The translations under genes were made by a program, and so were the position numbers. DNA of 24,000 bases from Bengtsoniella intestinalis (GTDB lineage: Bacteria; Bacillota; Clostridia; Oscillospirales; Oscillospiraceae). The notes under the pieces were generated by a model, which searched no databases, was not told the origin of the DNA, and saw only the letters and a list, made by a program, of their open reading frames with translations. Numbering within the stretch: the stretch's first letter is position 1; each line of letters starts with the position of its first letter. Positions 5,172 to 18,311 of this stretch are shown here, one piece after another. The stretch spans positions 1,666,622 through 1,690,621 of the forward strand of contig NZ_CP133584.1 in NCBI RefSeq assembly GCF_039719005.1, given 5' to 3'.

Positions 5172-6328
5172 AGCGTATGATGGCACTGATATTGGCCTGC
5201 GCCTGCTTGACTGGCTGTTCCACCACAGCCACCCTCTCCCCACAGGAGGAATATCTCAACGCATGGTATGAGGAAACGGATTTTTCAGGTACAGAAACCA
5301 TAGCGGAATTGTATGAAGCCGCCTTGCAGGAGGACACCTTGGTGGTGTACAGCATCACCACTCGTATCTATGATGTGGTGGAGTCCTTTCAGGCGGAATA
5401 TCCCGGTCTTACTGTGGAAATTTACGATACCCGTGCCCAAGATTTACTTGTGACCTTGCAAGAGGCCTACGACAATGAGGATTGGTTTTGTGATATTGTC
5501 ATTTGCTCCGATGACAACGGACAGCAATCCACAGAGCTGGCCGCCATTAAAATGGTGAACAAATATGTACCCGTTGACATTGAGCCCTATATCCTCCCCC
5601 AATGTAATGATGTCCTGCTGAATTTTGTCATAGAGGCAGAACAGCTTTTCTACAATCCCACCGTCTACGACAGTTGCCCCATTGATAATTGGTGGGCATT
5701 GACTGAGCCAGAGTGGGAGGGGAAAATTTATATGAATAGCCCTCTCCGCTCCCACCCTGCCTATGCCACTGTCCATGCCGTTATTGAGCGCAGTGATGAG
5801 ATGGCGGAACTGTATGAGGCATACTTTGGTGAACCCTTGGATATTCCAGAGGGTAGCTGTGCTGGTGAAATTTTCTGGGAGATGCTAGTGGCCAATGGGC
5901 TACAGTTTACCACCAGTTCCAATGAATTGGTGGAAATCATCGGTGGTGACGTGCCTACAAACGACGGCATGGCCTTTATGATTTCCAGCAAAATCCGCCG
6001 TTCCTCCATTGGGCTTGATGTCACCCCTGCCTATGGGGTGGCCCCTTGCGATGGTGTCTATTCCGCCAACAGCATTTCCATTGCAGGTGGCTCCGACAGC
6101 ACCGCTACGGCAAAGCTCTTTATCCGCTGGCTCCTAGGTGAAACCGATGGCACTGGCGAAGGATTGGAGGCCTATCAAACCGATGGCACATGGTCCGTTC
6201 GCACTGATGTCACCAGTCAATCTGAGATGGAACTGGATGAAATAGAGTTCTGGGACAACGACAAAGAAACCGTTTTAGCCATGGAAGATGAAGTTTTGGC
6301 ATTTTGGGCTACCTTGCAAACAGAGTAA
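5168..6328 (+). CDS. Lipoprotein, periplasmic-binding-protein fold (FbpA/PotD-like extracellular solute-binding protein)
   Basis: The start overlaps the upstream stop (ATGA). The lipobox is MKRMMALILACACLTGC|S. The pattern TLVVYS...F...YPGLTVE...(D)IV is typical of type II SBPs. Confidence 0.7.
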   Translation: MKRMMALILACACLTGCSTTATLSPQEEYLNAWYEETDFSGTETIAELYEAALQEDTLVVYSITTRIYDVVESFQAEYPGLTVEIYDTRAQDLLVTLQEAYDNEDWFCDIVICSDDNGQQSTELAAIKMVNKYVPVDIEPYILPQCNDVLLNFVIEAEQLFYNPTVYDSCPIDNWWALTEPEWEGKIYMNSPLRSHPAYATVHAVIERSDEMAELYEAYFGEPLDIPEGSCAGEIFWEMLVANGLQFTTSSNELVEIIGGDVPTNDGMAFMISSKIRRSSIGLDVTPAYGVAPCDGVYSANSISIAGGSDSTATAKLFIRWLLGETDGTGEGLEAYQTDGTWSVRTDVTSQSEMELDEIEFWDNDKETVLAMEDEVLAFWATLQTE

Positions 6329-6350: not shown

Positions 6351-8024
6351 GTGAAAGGCAGAGGACTATCCCTAAAATTGAAAATCAACCTTGTGCTGGG
6401 GCTACTGCTTGTGTCCATTTTGCTCTGCTGGGTCAGCTTCTACACCCGTGCCAACAACGCCATAGAAGAGAGTGCTGAAAATCTAGTCACCCAAGTTTCA
6501 GGACGTGTCAGTGATTTGGTTTACACCACTTTTTTATATCTGGAGCACACTGCTATGGTGCTCTCCACCAGTCAAACGGTGACGGAGCTGTTGGCAGAGG
6601 AGGACCCACTGGTCTATTACGCCCTCCGTGACCAAGTAGTGGCCTTGGCTGACTCCGTCTATCAGACCAATGGATTGGTGGACGACATTGTGCTCTACGA
6701 CACCCAAGGGAATTTTTGTCGTCTCCGTGGTGATTTGGGCAACACAGCCGCAACACGGATGAGTTACTTGGTGCCCTCTCAAACTCTGATGCAACACGGC
6801 ATTGTCACCTTAGAGGGAGACACCTATCTGAGCTATACCATAGAAGTGGTGGATCAGGGGCACTGTGTGGGCTATGTAGTGTTTCTCATGGAAACCACAC
6901 GCCTTCAAAATATTTTTGCAAGTTACGATACATCTGGATTATTGTCTGTAGACCTTGTGGCCGATGGTGCTTTACTCAGTGGTGAAACGGGGGTTTACAC
7001 CACCGCTGAGGTGATAGAAACAGCCAACACCTACTCCCTCACCTCCATCGGTTCCTCCCCGTTTTCTGTGTTGGTTTGGGACGATGGCGGACTCAATGAC
7101 CAGATTTTCGAGTATTTTGTTTTGATTGGTTTGGTCATCACCGCACTGCTTCTACTGCTGATGGGCGGTAGCTATCGCCTGCTCAATCGTTTGGTATTTA
7201 CCCCTATGTTACGCCTCATGTATAACGCCAAAGAGGTGGAGCAAGACCCCTCTCGCCTTCTTTTGGATATGACGGGACAACTGGAATTTGACCAGTTGGT
7301 CGCCCAATTCAACCACCTCATCGGCCAGCTAGAGGAACGGACCCAGGCGGCCTTCCAGCTAGAGCGCACCGTCCATGCCACAGAACTAGAACGGCAAACT
7401 GCCATTGTGGCCTCTTTGAAAAAGCAAATCAACGCCCACTTCACCGTCAATACCTTGGCAGTCATCCGTGGCTTAAACCGACAAGGTGAAACCGAAAAAG
7501 TTGCCAAACTCAGTGACGGTCTCGCCCATCTTCTCCGCTATGCCTACGATGGTGACGAGTCCATTTCCTGCTTGAGCGAAGTCATCATCCTTGAACGATA
7601 CGCCACCATGATGCAAATTCGTTACCCAGACAGATTTACAGCAGATTTCGATGTTGATTGCGACATCGAAGAGGTAAGTATGCCTCGTATGTTACTCCAG
7701 CCCATTTTAGAAAATGCCATTGTCCATGGCTTTGCCAATCAAACAGGATGTCACCTGACTCTGTGGGGGGAGAAAGTCCATAACACCCTTTGCTTTACCA
7801 TCACCGATGACGGCCATGGTATGCCAGTGGATAAATTAAAATCCCTGCAGGACACCATCAATGCTGTTACCCCTACGTCTCACAACCCAGATGGCCTAAA
7901 GCAAATTGCCTTAGCTAACATCCAAAAACGAGTGGTGACGGATTATGGCATGGGGTTCGGACTAACAATCGAGTCTCAAGAGGGAGAGGGTACTACGGTC
8001 ACACTGACACTCCCTTGTGGGTAA
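6351..8024 (+). CDS. Sensor histidine kinase, YesM/LytS-type (His_kinase plus HATPase_c), with two TM helices, an extracellular sensor domain and a HAMP domain
   Basis: The start is a GTG after AGGAGG. TM1 is LVLGLLLVSILLCWV and TM2 is FVLIGLVITALLLLLMG. The phosphoacceptor box is LKKQINAHFTVNTL. The ATPase N/G boxes are LQPILENAIVHG and ITDDGHGM...GFGL. Confidence 0.9.
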   Translation: MKGRGLSLKLKINLVLGLLLVSILLCWVSFYTRANNAIEESAENLVTQVSGRVSDLVYTTFLYLEHTAMVLSTSQTVTELLAEEDPLVYYALRDQVVALADSVYQTNGLVDDIVLYDTQGNFCRLRGDLGNTAATRMSYLVPSQTLMQHGIVTLEGDTYLSYTIEVVDQGHCVGYVVFLMETTRLQNIFASYDTSGLLSVDLVADGALLSGETGVYTTAEVIETANTYSLTSIGSSPFSVLVWDDGGLNDQIFEYFVLIGLVITALLLLLMGGSYRLLNRLVFTPMLRLMYNAKEVEQDPSRLLLDMTGQLEFDQLVAQFNHLIGQLEERTQAAFQLERTVHATELERQTAIVASLKKQINAHFTVNTLAVIRGLNRQGETEKVAKLSDGLAHLLRYAYDGDESISCLSEVIILERYATMMQIRYPDRFTADFDVDCDIEEVSMPRMLLQPILENAIVHGFANQTGCHLTLWGEKVHNTLCFTITDDGHGMPVDKLKSLQDTINAVTPTSHNPDGLKQIALANIQKRVVTDYGMGFGLTIESQEGEGTTVTLTLPCG

Positions 8025-8060
8025 ATGGACAAGTCTTCGTAGGAAAACTTATGATATATA

Positions 8061-8099
8061 CGAAAGAGGTGCCTATCCGTTGGATGGGCACCTCTTTCG
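8061..8099 (+). terminator. Rho-independent terminator after the two-component operon
   Basis: A 13-bp perfect stem, cgaaagaggtgcc / ggcacctctttcg, is followed by a T-rich tail (tgtgttgt). Confidence 0.65.
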
Positions 8100-8103
8100 T
8101 GTG

Positions 8104-8133
8104 TTGTAATTTTATAGCTCACTGTGTTATAAT
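8104..8133 (+). promoter_or_regulatory. Candidate sigma-A promoter for ireB
   Basis: TTGTAA, an 18-bp spacer, then TATAAT with an upstream TGt (extended -10). It lies 34 bp upstream of the ireB start. Confidence 0.4.
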
Positions 8134-8166
8134 AAAAGATAAGTATGGAAGTGAGGAGGGGTCATC

Positions 8167-8415
8167 TTGTCTGAATATATACAGAAATTGAACTATACGC
8201 AGGAGAATATCGGTGAAATCCGAGCTATATTACAGAACGTGTACCAGTCTCTCCTAGAAAAAGGGTATAGCCCTATCACCCAACTCGCAGGATATATCCT
8301 AACTGGCGATCCAACTTACATCACCAACTACAATCACGCTCGCCAGATTATCCAACGTGTAGATCGAGATATGCTGATGCAAGTATTACTACAGGATTAC
8401 TTGAAAGACAGTTAA
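8167..8415 (+). CDS. ireB: IreB-family regulatory phosphoprotein (UPF0297, B. subtilis YrzL-like)
   Basis: The start is a TTG after GAGGAGGGG. The 82-aa product carries the family signature ...V..AL.EKGYSPI.Q..GYILTGDP.YIT....AR..I....RD.L...LL..YL. Confidence 0.8.
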   Translation: MSEYIQKLNYTQENIGEIRAILQNVYQSLLEKGYSPITQLAGYILTGDPTYITNYNHARQIIQRVDRDMLMQVLLQDYLKDS

Positions 8416-8597
8416 AAGTCGTACCCAACGCTTTGCCAACCAATAAGTGGTGCAAAAGGGCGTGAAATGGTGTGCATTTTTAGTGCGAATATATATAATT
8501 ATGAGCGTACAATGAAATAAATGTCGAAAGCGGAAGTGTAGTTCCTGTAAAATATATGTGTTTTCCTTTATACTTCTTATAAAAAGGAGAAAACACT

Positions 8598-8813
8598 ATG
8601 CTAAAAGAAGCTTTAGCAGTCATACTTCGGCAAACACGGAAAGATAAAGGATGGACACAAGAGCAGGCAGCAGAAAAATGCGGCATTTCGGATAGAAGTA
8701 TTCGAGATGTGGAACACGGAAGTACCAATTTAAAGATAGACACCGTAGAGAAGATATGTAGCGGAATCGGCGTTATCGTCACTCTCCAAGGACTGGGTGA
8801 TAATGATGCATGA
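8598..8813 (+). CDS. XRE-family helix-turn-helix regulator (71 aa)
   Basis: The RBS is AAGGAG. The HTH_3 pattern is LRQTRKDKGWTQEQAAEKCGISDRSIRDVEHG. Confidence 0.8.
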   Translation: MLKEALAVILRQTRKDKGWTQEQAAEKCGISDRSIRDVEHGSTNLKIDTVEKICSGIGVIVTLQGLGDNDA

Positions 8814-9258
8814 TGTACCATTTATTTACCCCAGAATATATGATACGCTTTATGAGCTGGGGATTACTGCCAACTATGTTGGCTTTTTTCATACCTCTTT
8901 CGGCGTGTATTTGGCAGTTAACCAACCTGAGCGTATGCAGTATATTACAAAGTGGCTCTATCCAGATATTGCAAAGCAATATCATACCAACTGGAAATCG
9001 GTGGAGCGAAATATTCGTTCTGTGACTGCTATTGCCTGGAACACAAACCCGTTATTATTGCAAACTATGGCACGACACCCTCTAAGCAAAAGACCTTGTA
9101 ATTCCCAATTTATCGCTATCTTAGCCGCTCAATTTCCCTTGCCCTTATTCGGTGCCTGCGCTCTTTTGCCACAAGAGGGATTGACGGTATCTAACAAGGA
9201 ATACAGGCACCTAGTTGCGGTGGCTAGTGAAGCGGATAGACAAAAAATAAGCATCTAA
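8797..9258 (+). CDS. Standalone Spo0A C-terminal (DNA-binding) domain protein
   Basis: The stretch GITANYVGFFHTSFGVYLAV...ITKWLYPDIAKQYHTNWKSVERNIRSVTAIAW...KRPCNSQFIAILAAQF matches the Spo0A effector domain pattern (ITK.LYPDIAKK..TT.S.VERAIRHAIEVAW...KPTNSEFIA..A). There is no receiver domain. It overlaps the XRE gene by 17 nt. Confidence 0.75.
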   Translation: MIMMHDVPFIYPRIYDTLYELGITANYVGFFHTSFGVYLAVNQPERMQYITKWLYPDIAKQYHTNWKSVERNIRSVTAIAWNTNPLLLQTMARHPLSKRPCNSQFIAILAAQFPLPLFGACALLPQEGLTVSNKEYRHLVAVASEADRQKISI

Positions 9259-12041
9259 ATCTTATATTTCTTCTGGATATACCCCAAAAATGCCTCGATT
9301 TCATCCTGTGCGTTTTTGGGGATTTTCTTGTCCCAGAATACCGTTGGCACAGAAAATGCCGTGAGGCTATGGTTTGCCTTTAGGAAGTACACTTGCTCCT
9401 GTGAGAGTACCAATTTCCGAATGGCATAGCCATTATCTGTCCATGTGTGGGAGATGCAGTTGGGGGCGGTATCGTACCAGAAGTTGCTTTGTGTACTCTC
9501 CAAATACCCTAGCTGTTGCCCCAATAGGCGGCCTATCTCTTGAAAGGTCATCATAAAGCCTTGCCGATGTTCTTTGCGAAAATGTTCTCGCAATGCCCCA
9601 TAGTCGTGGGTTGGGAAGGTGGTGTTTTCTTCTGGCTGATAGTCGTTTAATTGCTCTAGCAGAGCGGACACATCTAGCCCTCTCACATGACTGGCATCAC
9701 GATACTCCACCGTATGCTCAGAGCATTTGATATGGATGTAAGCGGAGAATTTACCCAAAGGTTCCGTGTCTATGACAGTCAGCTGATGGCTTGGGAGCAT
9801 GGCCTTGCCACAGAGATAGCATTTGCCATCTTGGGACTTCCATAGTCGCTTATATTTGCCGCCTTTGTTGTTGACTGCACGGCGGTAATCCAAGGATTTT
9901 TTGTACTCGGTATCGAGGAAGTGATTGTAGTTGGTTTTCACTGGAAGGTATCGAATGGGCACGGTGTCTACGCAACGAATAACCTGTAAATGCCGTTTGT
10001 CCTCGGCAGAAAAAATGTATTCATCCTTGCTGATTTTGTACCAAAACTTCTTCTCCAACTTGGTCCAGTATTGTCGTGGAAACAAGGCTCTGACCTTTTG
10101 AATGAGCAGTGCTTGTATCACCACATCCAAATGACGAAAGGCATCGTGGGCATCGGTCATGCGGTGATAAGAGGTGTAGCCCACAATCATTTTGTTGAGA
10201 CCTATAATCAACTCCTCCACACTTCCAGTGTGTCGCTCAATGTAGTGCATCAGCTTTTCTTCAAAGCGCCGTAAATTGTCTTTGGATGGCTCTGCAATCA
10301 CCTTGCCATTACGAAGGTGATAGTACCGTCCTAAAAATGCAAAACCCTGTTGGATGGAGCGAATGGAGCTTTTCTCCTCGGAGAGTTTCAGTCCACGGAC
10401 AGATAGAAAATCGGCTACGATGGACTTGATTTCTTTGGCCTGTGCCTCGCTCTTGGCAAAGACTAAAATATCATCGGCAAAGCGAATGAGGTCGCCATAG
10501 GCATAGTTTTCCACAGGGGCACCGCCATAGAGCCTGCGTTGGATATAGGACTGCAACCCATCAAGCACCATGTTCCCGATAACAGGTGAGATGCCAGAGC
10601 CTTGGCTAATGCCCACTTCTTCCGCTGGGAACAGCTCGCCATTGAGGATTATCCCTGCATTGAGATACGCTTTTAATGGGGCTTTCAATGGCAAGTTCCG
10701 TAAAATCCAACGGTGAGAGATGGTATCGTAATAGCTTTTTACATCTGCACGGAGCACCCACAAGGGCACCTTGCTCCCCTCTAAGGTGCGACGAATATAA
10801 TGGTCTACATCAAACCCACTGCGCCCTTTTCGAAAGCCAAAGGATTTGCGGTCAGCCGTGGTCTCGGCCACTGGCTCTAGGGCATACCGCACGAGGGTCT
10901 GCATAGCTCTGTCTCGATAGGTGGGGATGTTAATTCTACGGTCTTTTTTTCCATCAAAAATCACCACACAGCGTAATGGCTGGCAGACGTAGCCCTCCAC
11001 CTTCAAGTCAAAGGTCGCTTGCATCTTTTGGCTGCTTGTCTCCCAACGCACCCCATCTGTGCCGACCTCCGATTCTGTTTCTGAAACGTGTCGCACTGCG
11101 AGGGCACGGGCTTCTGGAAGGTTAATGATTTCATCTTGCATCTGGTCTATCTGTGAGCGATTGCGCTCTCGCACCGCTCGTGCTACGGCCTGTTGCTTTT
11201 CAAAAAGAATACGTTCATAGCTAGGCCAGTCAATGCCATCCCAAAGGCGAGATAGCAGGGTTGCCGTCCATGTCATTTGCCGTGAAATGGAGGTGGTTAC
11301 TTCCAATGATATAGGGCAATGGTCTGAGCCGTGGATATGGGAGAGGATTTCTGTGTCTAACACCGTGGGGAGCAATCGTTGGGACACCAGAAAATAGTCC
11401 AATCGCCAGCCCCGATCTTCACGGCGCTTGAACAGACGGTATGACCACCAAGTATAGCCACGGGTTTCTGGGTTTTGTAGGCGGTATACATCCACCAAGC
11501 CCCAATGCAATAGCCGTTCAAATTTGGCACGCTCTATGGGTTGAAAGCCCACTGGATTTTTTTCATTGCGAAGATTTTCGGGGTAAATGTCAATGTAGGT
11601 ATGGGCAACATTGAAGTCACCACAGATTATCATGGGCTTATTCAATGCCTTTAGATATTTGAAAAAAGCATCGTCCCAATCGCTCCGATAGTTGTCACGA
11701 CTGAGCCGACCCTTGGACATGGGTTGGTAGACATTGATGAGATAAAAATCCTCAAATTCAAGGGTTAAAATTCGCCCCTCAATATCAAATTGCTCTAATC
11801 CTAAACCTTCACGGACAGAGATGGGGGGTACTCGTGATAGCACCAGCACCCCAGAGTAACCCCGTCTGCGTGAACTATTCCAGTAGGCCTCATAGCCCGA
11901 AATCTCTAGCTTGGCCTGCTTGCGAGTAGATTTGATTTCTTGGATGCAATACACATCGGCATCCAACTCTTGAATTTTTTCAACAAAGCCCTTTTTCATG
12001 CAGGCACGAAGGCCGTTGACGTTCCACGATATAATTTTCAT
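9255..12041 (-). CDS. Fusion protein: ExoIII/APE-type (EEP) endonuclease, then group II intron-like reverse transcriptase (RT0-7 plus thumb/X), then a degenerate HNH/Zn module, then a domain of unknown function
   Basis: - The ORF is 928 aa, with RBS AGGAGAG.
- aa 1-248 form an ExoIII fold with all catalytic positions present: WNVNG (N7), QE (E35), VYQP (Y105), GDFN (D142/N144), RLDY (D215), SDH (D240/H241).
- aa 270-575 carry the RT motifs: IDW...LAVRHV...GTDG (RT0), RRINIPTYRDRAMQ (1), FGFRKGRS (2a), LRADVKSYYDTISH (3), GISQGSGISPVIGN (4), IRFADDILVF (5, complement of 10470-10481), GLKLSEEKS (6), GFAFLGRYY (7).
- The thumb is LNKMIVGYTSYHR.
- aa 741-776 read CYLCG...IHIKCSEH.
- aa 810-928 are unassigned. 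Confidence 0.9.
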   Translation of the reverse strand: MKIISWNVNGLRACMKKGFVEKIQELDADVYCIQEIKSTRKQAKLEISGYEAYWNSSRRRGYSGVLVLSRVPPISVREGLGLEQFDIEGRILTLEFEDFYLINVYQPMSKGRLSRDNYRSDWDDAFFKYLKALNKPMIICGDFNVAHTYIDIYPENLRNEKNPVGFQPIERAKFERLLHWGLVDVYRLQNPETRGYTWWSYRLFKRREDRGWRLDYFLVSQRLLPTVLDTEILSHIHGSDHCPISLEVTTSISRQMTWTATLLSRLWDGIDWPSYERILFEKQQAVARAVRERNRSQIDQMQDEIINLPEARALAVRHVSETESEVGTDGVRWETSSQKMQATFDLKVEGYVCQPLRCVVIFDGKKDRRINIPTYRDRAMQTLVRYALEPVAETTADRKSFGFRKGRSGFDVDHYIRRTLEGSKVPLWVLRADVKSYYDTISHRWILRNLPLKAPLKAYLNAGIILNGELFPAEEVGISQGSGISPVIGNMVLDGLQSYIQRRLYGGAPVENYAYGDLIRFADDILVFAKSEAQAKEIKSIVADFLSVRGLKLSEEKSSIRSIQQGFAFLGRYYHLRNGKVIAEPSKDNLRRFEEKLMHYIERHTGSVEELIIGLNKMIVGYTSYHRMTDAHDAFRHLDVVIQALLIQKVRALFPRQYWTKLEKKFWYKISKDEYIFSAEDKRHLQVIRCVDTVPIRYLPVKTNYNHFLDTEYKKSLDYRRAVNNKGGKYKRLWKSQDGKCYLCGKAMLPSHQLTVIDTEPLGKFSAYIHIKCSEHTVEYRDASHVRGLDVSALLEQLNDYQPEENTTFPTHDYGALREHFRKEHRQGFMMTFQEIGRLLGQQLGYLESTQSNFWYDTAPNCISHTWTDNGYAIRKLVLSQEQVYFLKANHSLTAFSVPTVFWDKKIPKNAQDEIEAFLGYIQKKYKI

Positions 12042-12073
12042 GTAGGCTCTCCTATGTATGGTGTATAGTTCAG

Positions 12074-12103
12074 ATTATAGCATAAGAGTAGTACCTGTTC
12101 TAA
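12074..12103 (-). promoter_or_regulatory. Candidate dedicated promoter of the APE-RT gene
   Basis: On the minus strand: TTAGAA, an 18-bp spacer, then TGcTATAAT (extended -10). It sits in the 73-bp gap between the MBL gene stop and the RT start. Confidence 0.4.
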
Positions 12104-12114
12104 GTGGAGCTACA

Positions 12115-13383
12115 TCATGGGCAACAATTTCCGCATGGAGAGTAGCCATTTTCGATTAAAACCTCTCTGTCCTCCGTGGAGGTGGCATAATTCTTAGCGG
12201 ACATTTGGGATACGCTATAACAATCTGGGTAATGGAATTTGTGGCTACTGGTGTTCAGCACATAATAAAATTCGGAATCAGAATCGTCGTCGGTGGTATC
12301 TGTAATAGTGCCTGTTACAGTGGAGGTATTACTTGTTGGAGCGGTAAGCAGTTCATTGTCGCTGATGATTTTATCGGTGGTAACTGTCACGGTCTGCCCA
12401 TCGGAGGTGCAGATAATGTCACCTTGTAAATCCGTGCGATACAGGGTGACGTCAGCATCCCTCAGACGGCTCAATACGGCATCTGTGGGGTGCCCGTAGG
12501 AGTTACCCTCGCCACAGGAAATAACAGCGTACTGGGGCATGATTTCCCTCAAAAAGAGGTAGCTAGTAGATGTGTCACTGCCGTGGTGACCTACCTTTAG
12601 AACGGTGGAAGATAGGTCTGTTCCACTGTTCAATAACACCTGTTCAGCCTCATATTCTGCATCCCCCGTAAAGAGAAAAGAGGTCTCACCATAGGTGATT
12701 TTAAGCACGATAGATGTGTTGTTGGCATCGGTATCACTGTTGACTGCGAGAATGTCAATGTCAGCACTGCCCAATGTGTATTCGTCGCCTACGCTGGGTA
12801 CAGTGATACCGCCATTGAGGTCGGCATAATAGGCGAAATTCTCAAAGGCGTTGCTGTCATAGGTGGTCACTGGGCAGAGTATAGTATCAGCAGTTGCGTA
12901 GTTCAGTGCGCCGCTCAAACCGCCGATGTGGTCCTCGTGGGCGTGCGTCCCAACTACGATGGACAACTCGGTAATACCACGCTTGTCGAGGACGGAATAG
13001 ATTAAATTTGAGTCGGCCACATTGCCACCATCTATCAGCATATACTCCCCATCGCAGGAGACGAGAGCGGCATCAGCTTGTCCAACGTCCAAGAAGATAA
13101 TTTCAAAGGTGGAATCCTCCGATATGAGGGTTGTTGAAGTCTCCGTGTAGGTATTTGTGATACTGTCTATAGTCGGCTCAGTAGCGGTTTCTAAGGGCAG
13201 TTCAGCAGGGGTCTCTAAAGAAGGTGTAGGGGTTTCGAGTAAGATAATCTGTTCTACCCCTTGAGACACAGATGGGCTAGGTGTTTCAACATAATCGGCG
13301 GTGCTCTCACACCCAACCGAACAGCACAATATCATAAACATAGCTACAAATAACTGCAAGCCTTTTTTCCTTTTCATGGTCAA
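12115..13383 (-). CDS. Lipoprotein with a ComEC-like metallo-beta-lactamase fold domain and a C-terminal Cys/His zinc-ribbon-like tail
   Basis: The lipobox is FMILCCSVGC|E, followed by a Thr/Ser/Pro/Glu-rich linker. The MBL motifs are IIFLDVGQADA...LIDGG...GTHAHEDHIGG...GHHG...YGHP. The tail is HKFHYPDC...GYSPCGNCCP. Confidence 0.85.
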   Translation of the reverse strand: MTMKRKKGLQLFVAMFMILCCSVGCESTADYVETPSPSVSQGVEQIILLETPTPSLETPAELPLETATEPTIDSITNTYTETSTTLISEDSTFEIIFLDVGQADAALVSCDGEYMLIDGGNVADSNLIYSVLDKRGITELSIVVGTHAHEDHIGGLSGALNYATADTILCPVTTYDSNAFENFAYYADLNGGITVPSVGDEYTLGSADIDILAVNSDTDANNTSIVLKITYGETSFLFTGDAEYEAEQVLLNSGTDLSSTVLKVGHHGSDTSTSYLFLREIMPQYAVISCGEGNSYGHPTDAVLSRLRDADVTLYRTDLQGDIICTSDGQTVTVTTDKIISDNELLTAPTSNTSTVTGTITDTTDDDSDSEFYYVLNTSSHKFHYPDCYSVSQMSAKNYATSTEDREVLIENGYSPCGNCCP

Positions 13384-13426
13384 TCCTCCGTTTTTGATGA
13401 TTTCTAATTCTTATCTATATAAGCAA

Positions 13427-13463
13427 TATTGCCTATAACGCTTTAGCTTAATTATAGGCAATA
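13427..13463. promoter_or_regulatory. 12-bp perfect inverted repeat (candidate operator) in a divergent promoter region
   Basis: tattgcctataa (13427-13438) and ttataggcaata (13452-13463) are separated by 13 bp. The repeat lies between the MBL gene start (13383, minus) and the HTH gene start (13500, plus). Confidence 0.35.
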
Positions 13464-13499
13464 ATAGAGATATGTCAATGGGCGATGGAGGTGTATAGA

Positions 13500-13706
13500 A
13501 TGATTTCGTATGAGCCGCTTTGGCGAACAATGGAGCTAAAAAATGCAACAACGTACACATTACAAGTAAAAGGGAATATCAGTAGCTCCACCATACGTCG
13601 GTTAAAGGCATCGGAATCAGTATCCACCAACACGCTAGATGCCTTGTGTGCAATTCTAGATTGCAACCTTGAAGATGTGATTGCCTATTTGCCCGACGAG
13701 GCCTAA
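13500..13706 (+). CDS. Small helix-turn-helix DNA-binding protein (68 aa, XRE/YozG-like)
   Basis: The ATG at 13500 follows GGAGGTG, so the track start at 13485 is less likely. The HTH pattern is ...TYTLQVKGNISSSTIRRLKASESVSTNTLDALCAILDCNLEDVI. Confidence 0.75.
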   Translation: MISYEPLWRTMELKNATTYTLQVKGNISSSTIRRLKASESVSTNTLDALCAILDCNLEDVIAYLPDEA

Positions 13707-13953
13707 TGTAAAAAAGTGACAATATGAGCACACAACTAGCCTTGGATGTGAATACATCTGGGGCTAGTTCAATTTTACCGTGGAACATCGGCACAAATCG
13801 TTTTTGTGCAAAATTATTACCTTCACATCGTACCACAAAAATATCCAAAAATCAACACTAATAGTCAAGGTGTGTTTCTATTGGATTGTGTATAGCTCTA
13901 GTTTTATCATCTATACTATTAGTGATAGTCTTACACCAATAGGAGGTGCTAAA

Positions 13954-14277
13954 ATGGAGTTTGAAACCATCGGGAAAAACATTCGGCATTATCGCTTGGC
14001 AAAATCTATGCGCCAAGAGGACTTAGCTGAAAAAACGGGTCTAAGTCCTAACTATATCGGCGTGGTCGAACGTGGTGACAAGGTTCCTGCATTAGCAACT
14101 TTTATTAAGTTAGCAAACGCCCTTGATGTCTCTGCGGATATGCTACTTGCCGATGTCTTAAACACGGGATATATCGTAAAAGAATCGTTATTATCAGAAA
14201 AATTAGCACAGCTATCGCCCGATGATAGGTCTAAAATTTACGAGATTGTCGATACACTAATCAAACACAAAGCATAA
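13954..14277 (+). CDS. XRE-family transcriptional regulator (107 aa)
   Basis: The ATG at 13954 follows AGGAGGTG; the upstream 58 codons of the track ORF look like non-coding AT-rich sequence. The HTH is IRHYRLAKSMRQEDLAEKTGLSPNYIGVVERG. Confidence 0.85.
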   Translation: MEFETIGKNIRHYRLAKSMRQEDLAEKTGLSPNYIGVVERGDKVPALATFIKLANALDVSADMLLADVLNTGYIVKESLLSEKLAQLSPDDRSKIYEIVDTLIKHKA

Positions 14278-14282
14278 AAACC

Positions 14283-14310
14283 AGCAGACACGAGGCCCCT
14301 CGTGTCTGCT
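14283..14310. terminator. Bidirectional stem-loop between convergent genes
   Basis: The stem is agcagacacgagg / cctcgtgtctgct (13 bp). An A-run lies upstream and a T-containing tail downstream. Confidence 0.6.
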
Positions 14311-14343
14311 AGTTTCGTATTCATGTAAAAATACAGATAGATA

Positions 14344-14637
14344 TTAGAAATAGTTAGGGATCGCTATATCTGCAAAATCTTCCTGCCCCGTAATCACCAC
14401 ATTGTTATACCCCATGGAGCAATGAATAATGATGGCATCCCCATCTTCATCCCACCCTGCGAAGATTCCAACACGGCTATCATCAGCGTAGAACACCAAG
14501 TCGCCGGAGATGGCTTCTTCCCATGTGGTGGCGGTGCAGTAGGTGTGCTGCATGATAACGCCACCACCGTGGCCTATGATATATTCGCCGTCTGAGACGT
14601 TATAAAACACCCAATCTACAAACCCAGAACAGTCCAG
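14344..14637 (-). pseudogene. C-terminal fragment of an NlpC/P60 (C40) cell-wall peptidase, beginning exactly at the catalytic-Cys motif
   Basis: The sequence reads ...GLDCSGFVDWVFY...GDLVFY...VGIFAG...IIHC.... No signal peptide or N-terminal domains are present. The upstream part of the track ORF is integrase DNA read in another frame. Confidence 0.6.
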
Positions 14638-15088
14638 TCCGTAGGGCAGATACGGTGATATGACGTAGCTCCGACACACGGATTCCTGTGGCGCAGATGG
14701 TCTGGATTAGGAGTGCCAGCTTGCGATTCTTTTTCTTCTCTGCCGCTTGGATCAGCCGTTCATATTCTCGCTGGCTCAATTCCTTCTCAGGCTTTGAAAA
14801 GATTTCCCTCTGGATTTTTAGTTGCTTTACCTTGTATTGCGGAAAGCCCAGCCACTCCAAAAAACCATTGATCGCCGCCAACATGGAATTGACACTAGCA
14901 GGGGCATAGGCAGCGATAATATACTCCTTAAAGGCCAGCACCACCAGCTTGCTTAGCTCCTGCCCATGGGTGAACACAAGGAATGTTCGAAGGTCACGGA
15001 GATATTTTTGGATGGTATTCTGACTGCGTTCCTCCTCGTGGAGATGAATTTTGTATTGATTTAAGACTTCAAGATTGTAAGTTGTCAT
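14633..15088 (-). pseudogene. Truncated tyrosine recombinase (N-terminal about 152 aa only), paralog of the intact gene at 17457-18311
   Basis: It aligns residue for residue with the 284-aa recombinase up to ...ICATGIRVSELRHITVSALRTG. Homology then stops and the frame ends after 10 unrelated codons. The catalytic HxxR...Y region is missing. Confidence 0.75.
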
Positions 15089-15118
15089 GGGGATTTCCTC
15101 CTACAATATAAATTAAGG

Positions 15119-15350
15119 TTTAAGGCACGGCTGCCAGCCGTGTCTTTTGTCTTTTTGTTGCCTAAGCTGTTAGAATGGGAGAGAACAGGTCTGGCTCTGT
15201 TTTCCGAGGGCTTACACGCCCGCAAAGGAGTCCGCCAGCCGCCTCTCTCGTTCGCAGCATTCGATTTGCGCAGGTTGTGCCACCAAGACTGGTGCGTTCG
15301 TGTCACTCAGGAGATTGAACAAGCAGCGAAGAAAGCGGAATGCCTAATCA
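15119..15350 (+). ncRNA. Candidate IS110 bridge (guide) RNA region
   Basis: This is GC-rich structured non-coding DNA upstream of the transposase. It opens with the hairpin cacggctg-c-cagccgtg (15127-15143). It contains aaaggagtcc (15224-15233), which is perfectly complementary to ggactccttt at 16720-16729 near the predicted right junction. The track's N-terminal extension (15140-15370) has no RBS. Confidence 0.3.
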
Positions 15351-15370
15351 AAATACATGGAGGAAACAAT

Positions 15371-16588
15371 ATGAACGCAGTCGGAATCGATATTTCCAAA
15401 GAATTCAGCGTGGTAGCCGCCCTGCGGCCTATGGGTGAGGTGGCGCTCCCACCTCGTACTTACCAGCACGACAGCCACAGCATCGACGTACTGGCGCAGG
15501 AAATTCTTGCGTTGGGTGCGGACACCCGTGTCATCATGGAGGCCACTGGTCGTTACCACGAACCAGTCGCCCAGACACTGAGCCAGCACGGTATCTACGT
15601 CAGCATTCTCAACCCACTACTCATCAAGCAGAGCGGTGGTGGCTCCATCCGCAAGGTTAAAACCGACAAAGCCGATGCCCTAAAAATCGCAAAATACGGG
15701 CTTGACAATTGGGTGGATTTGCGAGAACATACACCTATGGAAACCATACGACAACAATTAAAGCTCTGCACACGGCAGTACAATTTGTACATGAAAACCA
15801 TTGTTTCATTGCAAAACAACCTAATTTCTCTCTCGGATAAGACCTTTCCAGGCGTCAACGAGCTGTTTTCTAGTCCTGAGCGCAAGGATGGTCATGTCAA
15901 GTGGATTGATTTTTTGGCTACATTTTGGCACTGTCACTGCATTGCAACCGTCAGCGAAAAGTCCTTCACAGACCGCTATCAAAAATGGTGCAAGCGAAAG
16001 GGGTACCATTTTCAACCCAAAAAGGCGGCTGAAATTTACGCAAAAACCCAGAAAATGATTGTCACTCTGCCCAAAAACGACTACGCAAAATTGTTGGTTG
16101 TGACGGCGGCCAAGCAACTCATAGCCTCCAAAGAAACCCTCTCTGAGATGAAAATCGAGATGAACCGCATGGCTAAAGAGTTGCCCGAGTACGACACCGT
16201 CATGGCGATGTACGGCGTAGGCGAGGCCACTGGCGTACAGCTGATGGCGGAGATTGGGGATGTGCGTCGCTTCGCCCACCGCAGCTCCATTGTGGCGTTT
16301 GCAGGGGTGGATCCGTCGGTCAACCAGTCAGGCAAGCAGACCTCTCAAGGCGGAAAGACCACCAAACGTGGCTCGCCCCACCTGCGCAAAACGCTGTTTC
16401 AGGTGGTGTCTACCTACGTCAAGAAGAAGCCTGAGGACGAGGCGGTGTACCAGTTCATAGACAAGAAACGTGCCGAGGGCAAGCCCTACTACGTCTACAT
16501 GACGGCCGCACAGAACAAGTTCCTGCGGATTTATTACGCTCGGGTCAAGGAGTGTATGCTGGCTCTGGAGACCGCCAGCGAGGGCTAA
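15371..16588 (+). CDS. IS110-family transposase/recombinase (DEDD RuvC-like N-domain plus Transposase_20 C-domain)
   Basis: The ATG at 15371 follows GGAGGA. Signature stretches are MNAVGIDISKEF...IMEATGRYH... and ...YGVGEATGVQLMAEIGDVRRF...AFAGVDPSVNQSGK. Confidence 0.9.
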   Translation: MNAVGIDISKEFSVVAALRPMGEVALPPRTYQHDSHSIDVLAQEILALGADTRVIMEATGRYHEPVAQTLSQHGIYVSILNPLLIKQSGGGSIRKVKTDKADALKIAKYGLDNWVDLREHTPMETIRQQLKLCTRQYNLYMKTIVSLQNNLISLSDKTFPGVNELFSSPERKDGHVKWIDFLATFWHCHCIATVSEKSFTDRYQKWCKRKGYHFQPKKAAEIYAKTQKMIVTLPKNDYAKLLVVTAAKQLIASKETLSEMKIEMNRMAKELPEYDTVMAMYGVGEATGVQLMAEIGDVRRFAHRSSIVAFAGVDPSVNQSGKQTSQGGKTTKRGSPHLRKTLFQVVSTYVKKKPEDEAVYQFIDKKRAEGKPYYVYMTAAQNKFLRIYYARVKECMLALETASEG

Positions 16589-16666
16589 GTGACGCTAATT
16601 TCATAGTTTTTCAGGTCAGTGATTACACCTTCTTTCTCTGGCCTGTTTTGTTATGCCTGCTTTGTC

Positions 16667-16692
16667 ATCTCACAATTTTTGTGAGATTTTTT
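16667..16692 (+). terminator. Stem-loop plus T-run downstream of the IS110 transposase
   Basis: The stem is atctcacaa / ttgtgagat with a ttt loop, followed by ttttt. Confidence 0.5.
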
Positions 16693-16780
16693 CATTTTAG
16701 GGCTTGACTTTTATTTACAGGACTCCTTTTATGGGTGTCTCTATTTTTAACAGGTTAGAAGGAAAAATTCTAGGGATAAT

Positions 16781-16812
16781 AAAAAATGCGTCTCACAGTG
16801 AGACGCATTTTT
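16781..16812. terminator. Bidirectional terminator
   Basis: aaaaaa-tgcgtctc-acagt-gagacgca-ttttt. It lies 115 nt downstream of the 77-aa minus-strand ORF. Confidence 0.6.
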
Positions 16813-16926
16813 GCTACGTTATAAAAGTTTGGGGGAGCAAACTGATTGTATGCAAGGATAGTTTGGGTTCGTGAAGAAATGTCAAGTCGAAGTAGTTGGA
16901 CAATCGCCCACTTTCAAACGGGCTAA

Positions 16927-17160
16927 TTAAAACGGGGTATCCTTAATAGAAATTTCGTATGCTGTGAGATTTTGTTGATACTCTAGTAAAACTTCTCGCA
17001 GTTTTTCAGGTGTCTGACACAGTATAGATTCAAATGGGCCTGCAGCTACATCTTCGATGAGCATGACAATATAGCCATCATCGCTTGATTGCACTTGGCA
17101 CATATCATCTTCAGCTAAATATGCTTCAAATTCGTTCAGAACTTGTTTGTATGTAAGCAT
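16927..17160 (-). CDS. Hypothetical small acidic protein (77 aa)
   Basis: The RBS AAAGGTGGGG lies 5-8 nt upstream of the ATG. I recognise no family. It lies directly downstream of the inverted-repeat-bounded segment. Confidence 0.5.
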   Translation of the reverse strand: MLTYKQVLNEFEAYLAEDDMCQVQSSDDGYIVMLIEDVAAGPFESILCQTPEKLREVLLEYQQNLTAYEISIKDTPF

Positions 17161-17176
17161 CGTGGCCCCACCTTTC

Positions 17177-17210
17177 GAGTTACCACATAACCTTTATTAT
17201 GTGGTAACTC
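17177..17210. repeat. Recombinase core-type site 1: 14-bp perfect arms around the 6-bp spacer ccttta
   Basis: gagttaccacataa | ccttta | ttatgtggtaactc. The stretch 17182-17207 is a 26-bp perfect inverted copy of 17430-17455. Confidence 0.7.
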
Positions 17211-17368
17211 GGCGTATTAGCTATACCGAAAAATCACTATCGAATCGAATAGAAACTGTACTTATAACTAAAAATACACAAATTTACCAGACCGATTTTT
17301 GATTAAACAAGAATCGGTCTATTTGTGTTGCCCTTAATAATATATAATGAACTAAATACGAATAAGAC

Positions 17369-17397
17369 TTGTGTTTTTCAATGAAAGCTGTTATAGT
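17369..17397 (+). promoter_or_regulatory. Candidate promoter inside the invertible segment
   Basis: TTGTGT, a 17-bp spacer, then TGtTATAGT (extended -10). It currently points toward the 3' end of the recombinase gene. After inversion it would point into the 77-aa ORF. Confidence 0.4.
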
Positions 17398-17429
17398 GAG
17401 CCAATAGACAGTTATAAATTGCAAATTTT

Positions 17430-17455
17430 TTACCACATAATAAAGGTTATGTGGT
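17430..17455. repeat. Recombinase core-type site 2: same arms, with the spacer reverse-complemented (taaagg)
   Basis: ttaccacataa | taaagg | ttatgtggt. It abuts the recombinase stop codon (17457-17459). Confidence 0.7.
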
Positions 17456-17456
17456 T

Positions 17457-18311
17457 TTATAAATTTCCGTAAAGTAGCTTCATACGCTCTAGCTGTTGCA
17501 TATGCTTCGTGCCTGTTTCCATGGTGTAAATACGGGTTGTGTTGATGCTGCTATGCCCTAAGATGTCGGCCAATCGGCTGATATCTTTTTCTATTTTATA
17601 ATAGGTGCGTGCAAATAGGTGCCGTAGATTATGGGGAAATACCTTGCTGTGGGCAACCTTGGCATCAGCACATAATTGCTTCATCATTTTCCAGATATTT
17701 GAGCGATCTAGCGGATTTCCCGATTTGGTCACAAACACCGCCCCCTGACATATGCCCATCTCTTTACAATATGATTTTAATGTTTTACAGAGTTCTTTCG
17801 GTAAGAAGACGATTCGATTTTTCCCCTTGCAACGTACAGTGGCACGACCCGCATGGAGTGCAGACACTGTGATATATTGCAACTCAGACACGCGAATTCC
17901 TGTGGCACAAATAGCTTGTATCAGTAAGGATAGTTTTCTGTTTTGCTGTTGCTCTGCCGTTTGCACAAGGCGCTCGTACTCCTTTTGACTTAACTCCTTT
18001 TCAGGGCGAGCAAAGATGGTGCGTTGAATTTTTAGCGGCTTAACTTTACAGAGCGGTAATGCCAACCACTCTAAAAAACCATTGATGGCTGCCAACATGG
18101 AATTGACACTGCTCGGGGCATAGTCTAGCAGCAAGTTCTCTTTGTAGACAAGCACCTCTGCTTTGATCAGTTCCCTATCATCTAAGAACTCCAAAAATTT
18201 TCTGACATCCCTCAGATACTTCTGTACGGTGTTTTGACTACGTTCTTCTTGGTAGAGATGGACTTCATAGTCGGTTAAATATTGCTGATTTACTGTCTTT
18301 GCTTGGATCAT
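17457..18311 (-). CDS. Tyrosine recombinase/integrase (XerC/D-like, 284 aa), intact
   Basis: The N-terminal SAM-like domain reads ERSQNTVQKYLRDVRKFLEF. The catalytic residues lie in ATGIRVSEL (R), ...HNLRHLFA (HxxR) and ...GHSSINTTRIY (H...Y). Confidence 0.9.
   Translation of the reverse strand: MIQAKTVNQQYLTDYEVHLYQEERSQNTVQKYLRDVRKFLEFLDDRELIKAEVLVYKENLLLDYAPSSVNSMLAAINGFLEWLALPLCKVKPLKIQRTIFARPEKELSQKEYERLVQTAEQQQNRKLSLLIQAICATGIRVSELQYITVSALHAGRATVRCKGKNRIVFLPKELCKTLKSYCKEMGICQGAVFVTKSGNPLDRSNIWKMMKQLCADAKVAHSKVFPHNLRHLFARTYYKIEKDISRLADILGHSSINTTRIYTMETGTKHMQQLERMKLLYGNL

Follow-up and report, generated by a model that had tools for sequence, protein, structure and literature searches.

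A bacterial exodeoxyribonuclease III-reverse transcriptase pair, encoded as a fusion or as two adjacent genes, on mobile elements of gut Clostridia

The stretch of the genome of Bengtsoniella intestinalis, a member of Oscillospiraceae (Clostridia), analysed here (contig NZ_CP133584.1, positions 1,666,622 to 1,690,621; hereafter the window, 24,000 nt long and numbered from its first letter) carries a gene at 9255..12041 (-) whose product joins an exodeoxyribonuclease III (ExoIII) to a reverse transcriptase (RT) of the group II intron type. We find that this fusion is one state of a two-gene xth + RT module, and that ExoIII and RT are an obligate pair, encoded either as a single polypeptide or as adjacent, coupled genes. 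The best explanation for these observations is a self-contained nuclease-polymerase module carried on mobile elements, in which a domesticated RT, deprived of ribozyme and HNH activity, works together with ExoIII. As to its role, we put forward as a plausible but tentative reading that ExoIII makes or cleans a 3'-OH which the RT would then extend, in repair or damage tolerance; substrate, template and role are inferred from the comparisons below.

Results

ExoIII and RT occur as a fusion or as coupled neighbouring genes

The gene is one uninterrupted open reading frame (ORF) with an ATG start, encoding 928 aa and a stop codon, and its product is 100% identical to NCBI WP_409969855.1, titled 'exodeoxyribonuclease III [Bengtsoniella intestinalis]'. 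From the N-terminus, the protein comprises a full-length ExoIII/Xth nuclease, RT0-RT7 with an FADD motif, a thumb/X domain, a DNA-binding region with an HNH-derived Zn-knuckle, and DUF7662. Pfam assigns Exo_endo_phos to aa 4-241 (E 5e-28), RVT_N (PF13655) to aa 267-344 (E 8e-11), RVT_1 to aa 366-571 (E 2e-26) and GIIM (PF08388) to aa 591-663 (E 2e-8). The NCBIfam xth model TIGR00633 aligns end to end with 264 bits (cut-off 99), covering aa 1-250 only, and group_II_RT_mat, TIGR04416, reaches 223 bits, under its 300-bit curated cut-off. An assembly or frameshift artefact at the junction could be ruled out, as the DNA at 11200-11340 reads clean and in frame, with neither a homopolymer run nor an internal ribosome-binding site, and at least 118 independent sequences share the fusion.

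These sequences came from a homologue search of 5.8 billion proteins: among the 120 matches listed, 118 are at least 900 aa long, 38-54% identical to the query and of the same architecture, nearly all spanning the whole query, and the family holds at least 118 clusters at 90% identity. Conservation was scored in two alignments, one of the 118 full-length homologues and one of 83 sequences. The ExoIII residues N7, E35, Y105, D142, N144, D215, D240 and H241, the RT aspartates D433 and D523/D524 (in 'RFADD') and the set C741/C744/H770/C773 are all conserved in at least 97% of the former and are invariant or nearly so in the latter, where R520 is invariant and A522 is kept in at least 90%. Conservation is evenly spread along the protein in the 118-sequence alignment. 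Both catalytic centres look intact, and the retention of the active sites, together with this even conservation, indicates that both enzymes are under purifying selection. An earlier note, made from the DNA letters alone, had described a single 928-aa ExoIII-RT ORF with RT0-RT7, an FADD motif and a thumb/X domain, with every canonical catalytic position of the nuclease present, and had asked whether the fusion recurs; the uninterrupted ORF, the Pfam and NCBIfam calls, the Foldseek matches to maturases given below and the two alignments bear out the description, and the same fusion is found in at least 118 homologues.

We also searched the C-terminal domain (CTD) alone against 1.84 billion representative proteins, which gave 196 matches at E ≤0.001. 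Besides many short sequences, probably fragments, these fall into two length classes, a longer one of about 920-1070 aa with the order ExoIII-RT-CTD, and a shorter one of about 675-740 aa that reads RVT_N-RVT_1-GIIM-DUF7662, without ExoIII. Each of the ExoIII-less RT-CTD genes examined (7/7) has a separate Exo_endo_phos (xth) gene of 238-266 aa directly upstream. The two genes share a 4-base stop/start overlap at five of these seven (loci L024, L025, L026, L100 (protein P0124) and L104 (P0152)), and are parted by gaps at the other two, of 2 nt in L106 (P0179) and 6 nt in L101-103 (P0165). At the DNA level, L024-L026 carry an ATGA/GTGA overlap behind a GGAGG ribosome-binding site that lies inside conserved 'LEV' codons; at the equivalent spot the window reads TTGGAAGTAACC..., continuing in frame. 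A crude neighbour-joining tree made from the RT-CTD part, with two true intron-encoded proteins as its root, has the fused and the split forms interleaved, which suggests that the xth and RT genes were fused or split several times.

The pairing is thus obligate on the count of at least 118 fusions and of an xth gene upstream of every unfused RT gene examined, and it provides strong evidence that ExoIII and RT act on the same substrate. The earlier reading of the locus as a single fusion was right in that the fusion is real, and fell short in that unfused two-gene xth + RT forms also exist.

A repair-type nuclease is joined to an intron-type RT with a decayed HNH domain

An AlphaFold2 model built from the family alignment reached a mean predicted local distance difference test (pLDDT) score of 86 and a predicted template modelling (pTM) score of 0.67. 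The nuclease, ExoIII/Xth of the apurinic/apyrimidinic (AP) endonuclease, or APE, type, occupies aa 1-250 (11292..12041 (-)), contains all eight of the catalytic residues named above, and is delimited by TIGR00633, Pfam, PDB matches and Foldseek. Its sequence matches in the PDB include H. pylori XthA (263 bits), ExoA (234) and APE1 (about 205), and Foldseek against the PDB pairs the N-terminus with XthA, ExoA, Mth212 and APE1 at 43-49% identity and target TM-scores of about 0.9. Free-standing xth genes of Clostridia, Bacteroidales and Bacilli share 45-51% identity with it, and one of its loops has a family-specific two-residue insertion, 'IDIYPEN'. Alignment with these four enzymes from end to end, and the identity to free xth genes, argue for generic AP-endonuclease/3'-repair chemistry and not for a specialised target nickase. 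A short linker follows (aa 251-266, 11244..11291 (-)), identified from the junctions of L024, L025 and L026 against the window as the site of the stop/start overlap in split relatives; its aa 251-260 are modelled at a lower pLDDT, 68.

The RT part opens with the RVT_N/RT0 N-terminal extension (aa 267-344, 11010..11243 (-); PF13655) and continues with the fingers and palm, RT1-RT7 (aa 366-571, 10329..10946 (-); RVT_1, invariant D433, Foldseek), within which the FADD polymerase active-site motif (aa 521-524, 10470..10481 (-)) was read from the sequence and the alignment. The thumb, or domain X, lies at aa 591-663 (10053..10271 (-); GIIM, PF08388). Foldseek against the PDB matches this part to the group II intron maturases 8fli_B and 6me0_C, at 32-34% identity and target TM-scores of 0.87-0.92.

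Downstream of the thumb, a D domain and a degenerate HNH (En) remnant (aa about 685-780, 9702..9989 (-)) were located by alignments and by a profile of the last 263 residues, whose first third matches the T.el4h intron RT in its D/En (HNH) region (6me0_C residues 445-546, E 1e-10). Compared with an HNH-intact intron-encoded protein, Aneurinibacillus ltrA ('...DVHHKIRRVDGG...NLAYVHRYCH'), the family retains the zinc-binding Cys/His residues and an 'NLAYIHxxC' motif, but the catalytic His-His pair is absent, these positions being mostly D-Q or D-E. The invariant C741/C744/H770/C773 make up a CxxC...HxxC Zn-knuckle at nt 9723-9821 (-). The original HNH nuclease is, judging by these substitutions, inactive, and the loss of its His-His pair would leave ExoIII as the only nuclease of the family.

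DUF7662 (PF24698) is detected by Pfam in many homologues, downstream of the En remnant. The window protein itself gives no PF24698 match in Pfam, and its DUF7662-like domain (aa about 812-890, 9372..9608 (-)) is assigned by alignment to PF24698-bearing homologues. W855, W867 and G871 are conserved in this region in the 118-sequence alignment, the domain is confidently modelled (pLDDT 82-96 in a model of the CTD), and we found no account of DUF7662 in the searchable literature. The protein ends in a helix with a conserved '...KKYGL'-type tail (aa 891-928, 9258..9371 (-)), taken from the family consensus, with helix 909-926 in the model. The proposal that the Cys/His module is a decayed En/HNH domain is upheld by the 6me0_C alignment and the lost His-His pair, and the anatomy in the earlier note (nuclease, RT, thumb, decayed HNH) stands, save that it had overlooked the conserved extra C-terminal domain.

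Two family variants depart from this plan. P0185 (1073 aa) has ~100 aa inserted between ExoIII and RVT_N and carries a basic tail at its C-terminus, and in P0231 (726 aa), a shortened form, ExoIII, RVT_N and a truncated RVT_1 lead directly into DUF7662, with no GIIM/En remnant. The CTD search also returned P0239, P0240 and P0242, one of them with a weak SUKH-1 hint.

No intron RNA or shared upstream RNA was found at the module

Rfam gave no match in the whole window at the gathering threshold, none at 7500-14500 at E up to 1, and no intron RNA at nine family loci. As positive controls, the genuine ltrA introns L187 and L188 gave group-II-D1D4-7 and Intron_gpII matches flanking their ORFs exactly. 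The idea of an xth gene with a group II intron inserted at its end was rejected on these grounds (no ribozyme domains in the window or the nine loci, controls that scored) and because the architecture is conserved at 38-54% identity. On sequence comparison, the 928-aa protein is a domesticated group II-like RT: its nearest RT relatives are intron-encoded proteins, and it has no intron RNA.

A dedicated upstream non-coding RNA (ncRNA) was also rejected, since the 12 upstream regions that were folded have no common structure; three of them, with z near -2, contain strong hairpins resembling terminators of the preceding gene. In the window, the upstream intergenic region measures 73 nt (12042..12114 (-)), folds with a z-score of +0.49 and is negative in Rfam. 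A TATAAT-like box and an AGGAG ribosome-binding site can be read there by eye, and a scan for consensus promoters and terminators gave nothing above chance, with no promoter call at 12042..12114. At L020, an Rfam pemK cis-regulatory RNA (69 bits) lies on the carrier element at 5632-5712 (-).

The gene is a single-copy passenger of mobile elements

All contexts of the gene are mobile or variable DNA. It rides as a single-copy passenger on integrative or mobilisable elements, in gut Oscillospiraceae as well as other Clostridia, and gut metagenomes from humans and animals commonly contain the family. Its neighbourhood in the window holds XRE regulators, integrase fragments, and IS110 and IS3-type elements. 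One related locus is a Tn916-like element, with the gene between sigma/helix-turn-helix (HTH) genes and an MmeI-type restriction-modification gene, Xis and an integrase; another, common in Flavonifractor plautii-like samples, is a ~33-kb element that carries a Mob_Pre relaxase and RelB/YafQ; a third is a 216-kb phage- or plasmid-like contig. Eight IMG/VR contigs carry serine recombinases, ParB-like proteins, RecD2, YqaJ and SLOG/DprA-like genes. A phage origin of these contigs was considered and rejected, as the 25 PHROG families listed for seven IMG/VR loci, 8 kb either side, include near the module only integrases, repressors and DNA-metabolism genes, and no virion family (capsid, tail, terminase). 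No full-length copy was found in annotated phage and plasmid collections.

Across 118 neighbouring proteins at 18 loci, we counted 16 with an XRE-type HTH, four with Sigma-70 region 4, three Y-family polymerases (IMS), three YpsA/SLOG proteins (five counting two related loci), and two to three each of integrases, restriction-modification methyltransferases, ResIII and M78 peptidases; none is a universal partner. The IMS gene lies upstream on the same strand in L006 (3880-5831), L024 (5107-7907) and L022 (4789-7900). Between L006, which is fused, and L024, which is split, the IMS proteins are 65% identical, an unannotated 142/148-aa protein directly before the module 55%, and the RTs only 43%; in L006 an M78 peptidase precedes the IMS polymerase. 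A small YpsA/SLOG (DprA-like) protein stands immediately upstream in five IMG/VR contigs: L020 (7368-7829), L021 (4691-5182), L023 (7346-7834), L025 (7382-7852) and L027.

These surroundings bear on the idea that the pair is a helper of its carrier, for instance by completing or repairing the incoming single strand once conjugation or prophage induction has occurred, or by removing RNA from RT products through an RNase-H-like action of ExoIII. We consider such a role unlikely. The module does sit in regions of lysogeny, regulation and DNA metabolism, where serine and tyrosine recombinases, the ParB-like, RecD2, YqaJ and SLOG/DprA-like proteins and the Mob_Pre relaxase are found nearby, it is by appearance usually its own transcription unit, the upstream gap ending in a terminator-like hairpin in some loci, and E. 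coli ExoIII has RNase H activity. However, the want of a universal partner gene and the diversity of the carriers, from Tn916-like and roughly 33-kb Mob_Pre elements to phage- or plasmid-like contigs, count against it, and it overlaps heavily with the repair reading, from which it differs mainly in the beneficiary (element and not host).

A metallo-beta-lactamase (MBL)-fold gene is the upstream neighbour in the window (12115-13383 (-)) and in L001 (2497-3702), with an apparent lipoprotein signal peptide, read by eye, and a Cys-rich C-terminal motif. The label 'RT-associated MBL' was rejected for it, being a generic MBL-fold match that equals those to the LmuA and Avs1a models of PADLOC, and a neighbour in 2 of ~18 loci. 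Further upstream in the window, 14344-18311 is an apparent decayed mobile element with an NlpC/P60 fragment, a truncated tyrosine recombinase (14600-15088) and an IS110-family transposase (15140-16588), and with a second, full recombinase at 17457-18311, of which L021 and L023 have homologues just downstream of the RT. A GGDEF-EAL gene at 18630-20923 (-) is seemingly split, likely as a pseudogene or by sequencing error, into an ORF at 19190-20923 with SBP_bac_3, GGDEF and the initial 50 aa of EAL, and one at 18630-19169 with the remaining EAL.

The likeness to LINE ORF2 proteins lies in domain order

The order of nuclease, RT and Cys-rich C-terminus is that of the ORF2 protein (ORF2p) of long interspersed nuclear elements (LINEs), and raises the alternative of a prokaryotic retroelement that moves by target-primed reverse transcription, ExoIII nicking the target and the RT copying its own mRNA or another RNA in LINE-like fashion. 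L1 ORF2p aligns collinearly in Foldseek over about 890 columns (E about 1e-24), the RT0, thumb and D domains are retained, and FADD is the motif form seen in RTs from elements that have no long terminal repeats (non-LTR elements). Yet the whole-protein TM-scores are 0.22-0.31, at a root-mean-square deviation of 15-17 Å and 15-16% identity, and the distribution of the gene points the other way. Exact variants occur in many collection blocks (P0077 in 74, P0064 in 77, P0267 in 91), each in essentially one genomic context, with P0064 differing at one place on its upstream flank. A scan of species-representative genomes gave four fused loci among the best 80, all in Oscillospiraceae/Eubacteriales assemblies or unclassified metagenome-assembled genomes (MAGs), and no contig recurred among those 80. 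Packing is tight, with intergenic gaps of 12-230 nt around the gene at family loci, and in the window a convergent stand-alone Spo0A_C ORF of 153 aa (8797-9258 (+)) overlaps the stop codon of the RT gene by 4 nt, so that a 3' untranslated region (UTR) has no space there. No conserved flanking RNA was found, and the two-gene split forms speak against cis-acting ORF2-like logic. With one context per variant, no repeated contig among the best 80 loci and tight packing, the gene is not recognisably a retrotransposon, and we regard the retroelement alternative as very unlikely. A second Spo0A_C gene lies close to the module in L101.

A related proposal, that xth + RT carries out a bacterial lesion- or nick-primed reverse transcription, we hold to be decidedly unlikely; here ExoIII would open DNA at abasic sites or nicks, and the intron-derived RT would copy RNA, either cellular transcripts or its own mRNA, into the carrier element or the chromosome. 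Were it true, it would be an independently evolved prokaryotic counterpart of target-primed reverse transcription by LINE ORF2p, and a living model of how a group II-type RT could lose its nuclease and recruit a host APE, a step that has been proposed for the origin of APE-type retrotransposons.

As far as sequence and structural comparison can tell, the likeness is one of convergent domain order and not of descent. The nuclease is of the bacterial ExoA/APE1 type, with no L1-EN chain among its PDB matches at E ≤1e-20, and the RT is nearer to intron-encoded proteins (32-35% identity) than to L1 ORF2p (15-16%), as judged by sequence identity. It looks as though a bacterial ExoA-type xth gene was recruited by an intron-type RT with a decayed HNH domain. 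What had been claimed at the outset as LINE ORF2 likeness therefore survives as a shared domain order, and fails as descent and retrotransposon behaviour, given 15-16% identity and one context per variant.

Discussion

Under the repair reading that we tentatively favour, ExoIII would cut abasic sites or, at nicks, gaps or breaks, trim 3' ends that are blocked, mismatched or flapped, to leave a clean 3'-OH, and the RT could extend this end on a DNA or RNA template by gap filling, strand displacement, lesion bypass or microhomology-mediated joining. To grip nucleic acid, the RT may have kept RT0-7, the thumb, the D domain and the Zn-knuckle. DUF7662 probably recognises the substrate or a partner protein, and carrier element and host would both benefit from the resulting repair or damage tolerance. 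We favour this reading because the nuclease is an unmodified repair-type enzyme, because Y-family polymerase cassettes lie upstream, and because there are precedents among related RTs: the group II-like (G2L) enzyme G2L4 and group II RTs carry out translesion synthesis and repair double-strand breaks by way of microhomology, with activities like those of polymerase theta (bioRxiv 10.1101/2022.03.14.484287), and a PrimPol-G2L RT fusion contributes to the oxidative-damage response (PMC12439943). Repair-type neighbours (IMS, SLOG/DprA-like, RecD2, YqaJ) recur at the loci described here. Nucleases and polymerases are coupled in comparable ways elsewhere, bacterial PolX combining an AP-endonuclease/3'-exonuclease with a gap-filling polymerase, and human APE2, of the ExoIII family, assisting polymerase theta in microhomology-mediated joining.

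Several observations weigh against repair. The IMS link is limited to three of ~18 loci, two of which are related elements, and restriction-modification genes (Type III, MmeI-type, Type I/II methyltransferases) lie beside several loci. The nuclease is not always kept: the P0064 lineage (L011 at about 5850-6100, and also L012-L016), which is the Tn916-like element with the MmeI-type restriction-modification gene found in 77 collection blocks, has a genuine frameshift inside ExoIII that puts the N-terminus, VRIISWNVNGL...GYSGT, in a different frame, so that the called protein is without N7 and E35. Searches of the PDB and BFVD with the DUF7662 model gave no significant structural match, and elsewhere large proteins carry the domain repeated 6-10 times in tandem, an arrangement that could suit a sensor. 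Between the window and L001, a 'Rikenellaceae' MAG with the same HTH-HTH / MBL / RT order, the MBL proteins are 79% identical and the RTs 54%, and this greater divergence of the RT in one syntenic pair might reflect conflict-driven evolution. Finally, most bacterial domesticated RTs of known function are anti-phage systems.

The main rival to repair is accordingly defence against phages or other mobile elements, of the kind provided by defence-associated RTs (DRTs): the RT would make DNA on infection, ExoIII would create primers or nicks on the DNA of the invader or process the complementary DNA (cDNA), and DUF7662 would act as the sensor. Retrons, DRT1-10, abortive-infection (Abi) and CRISPR-associated RTs are all defence-related (PMC8632793; PMC9226505), and the module, a cargo of integrative and mobilisable elements, has restriction-modification systems and toxin-antitoxin pairs for neighbours. 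XRE regulators, its commonest neighbours, also match the PADLOC capH/control-protein models, M78 peptidases (capP) occur in two loci, the RT has diverged beyond the neighbouring MBL gene, and a host exonuclease gates DRT10 cDNA, so that interplay of nuclease and RT exists in defence. On the other side, no PADLOC or NCBIfam defence model is satisfied by the protein, no ncRNA, SLATT, nitrilase or other effector partner was found among the 118 neighbours and 12 upstream regions, the nuclease is of unmodified housekeeping type, and restriction-modification neighbours occur at only ~5 of 18 loci, as expected of any mobile-element cargo. We judge defence possible but doubtful, and favour repair or damage tolerance. 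The earlier note had raised three functions, target-primed reverse transcription, a repair polymerase and an anti-phage effector; genomic context leans to repair or damage tolerance, or else to conflict systems of mobile elements.

Taken together, ExoIII-RT/xth + RT is a well-populated addition to the domesticated bacterial RTs, itself undescribed in the searchable literature, where G2L RTs coupled to accessory enzymes are already known. We found no description of an ExoIII-RT pairing in prokaryotes in searchable full-text literature, a scope that leaves subscription-only literature outside. Public databases label the family plainly as 'exodeoxyribonuclease III' or 'group II intron RT/maturase', which hides the RT or the pairing. 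The module offers a bacterial parallel to the origin proposed for APE-type LINEs, in which an intron-type RT lost its HNH activity and recruited a host AP endonuclease. By evolutionary logic, the recruited nuclease would have been first a coupled gene and then a fusion partner, and with operon and fusion both extant this recruitment step is open to experimental study. A compact enzyme that creates or cleans a 3'-OH and extends it could be of use in nick-primed DNA writing, and knowing whether the pair serves repair or phage defence would broaden the known roles of G2L RTs.

Comparison with known systems

Like human L1 ORF2p (8UW3/9HDR), the fused protein has an N-terminal ExoIII-family nuclease, an RT and a Cys-rich C-terminus in one polypeptide, alongside which split forms also exist; its nuclease is of the bacterial ExoA/APE1 type, that of ORF2p of the L1-EN type. 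Unlike LINEs, the module is prokaryotic, resides on DNA mobile elements, can be two separate genes, and comes without copies, truncations or UTRs.

With the group II intron RT/maturases (T.el4h 6ME0/8FLI, ltrA), the 928-aa protein has in common all of RT0-RT7, thumb/X and D, at 32-35% identity over aa 249-792 and target TM-scores of 0.87-0.92. It is set apart from them by a gene without ribozyme, a TIGR04416 score under the cut-off, the loss of the HNH His pair and the gain of ExoIII and DUF7662.

The G2L RTs (G2L4, others and PPRT) resemble it in being free-standing RTs of the intron type that have no intron and whose link to DNA repair is established or plausible. By comparison with published descriptions, G2L4 has about 415-420 aa, a YIDD motif and no extra domains, against 928 aa, FADD, ExoIII and DUF7662 here, and in G2L5 the DD has become DN and the N-terminus is extended by ~500 aa, against invariant D523/D524 and a 250-aa ExoIII. 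PPRT is a G2L RT with an N-terminal PrimPol where ExoIII-RT has ExoIII, and G2L RTs are without DUF7662. Among defence RTs, UG17 (DRT10), formerly classed as G2L3, is the best class-specific match in PADLOC, a partial one at 82 bits, compared with 123 bits for the generic RT model, and the NCBIfam scores lie far under their cut-offs (Drt3a 48 bits against 200, Drt2 27 against 390). DRT10 consists of an ncRNA plus a SLATT effector plus an RT of ~450 aa, and no such partners stand at ExoIII-RT loci (118 neighbours, 12 folded upstream regions). Membership in G2L4, G2L5, UG17/DRT10, other DRTs or retrons was thus rejected, on mismatched length, motif or domains or on model scores; the initial impression that the protein fits no named bacterial RT class holds against all of these and against intron-encoded proteins.

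Exodeoxyribonuclease III, ExoA and APE1, finally, are matched by the nuclease domain over its full length, with TIGR00633 above its cut-off and every catalytic residue within aa 1-250. What sets it apart from these repair nucleases is its coupling, covalent or translational, to a polymerase.

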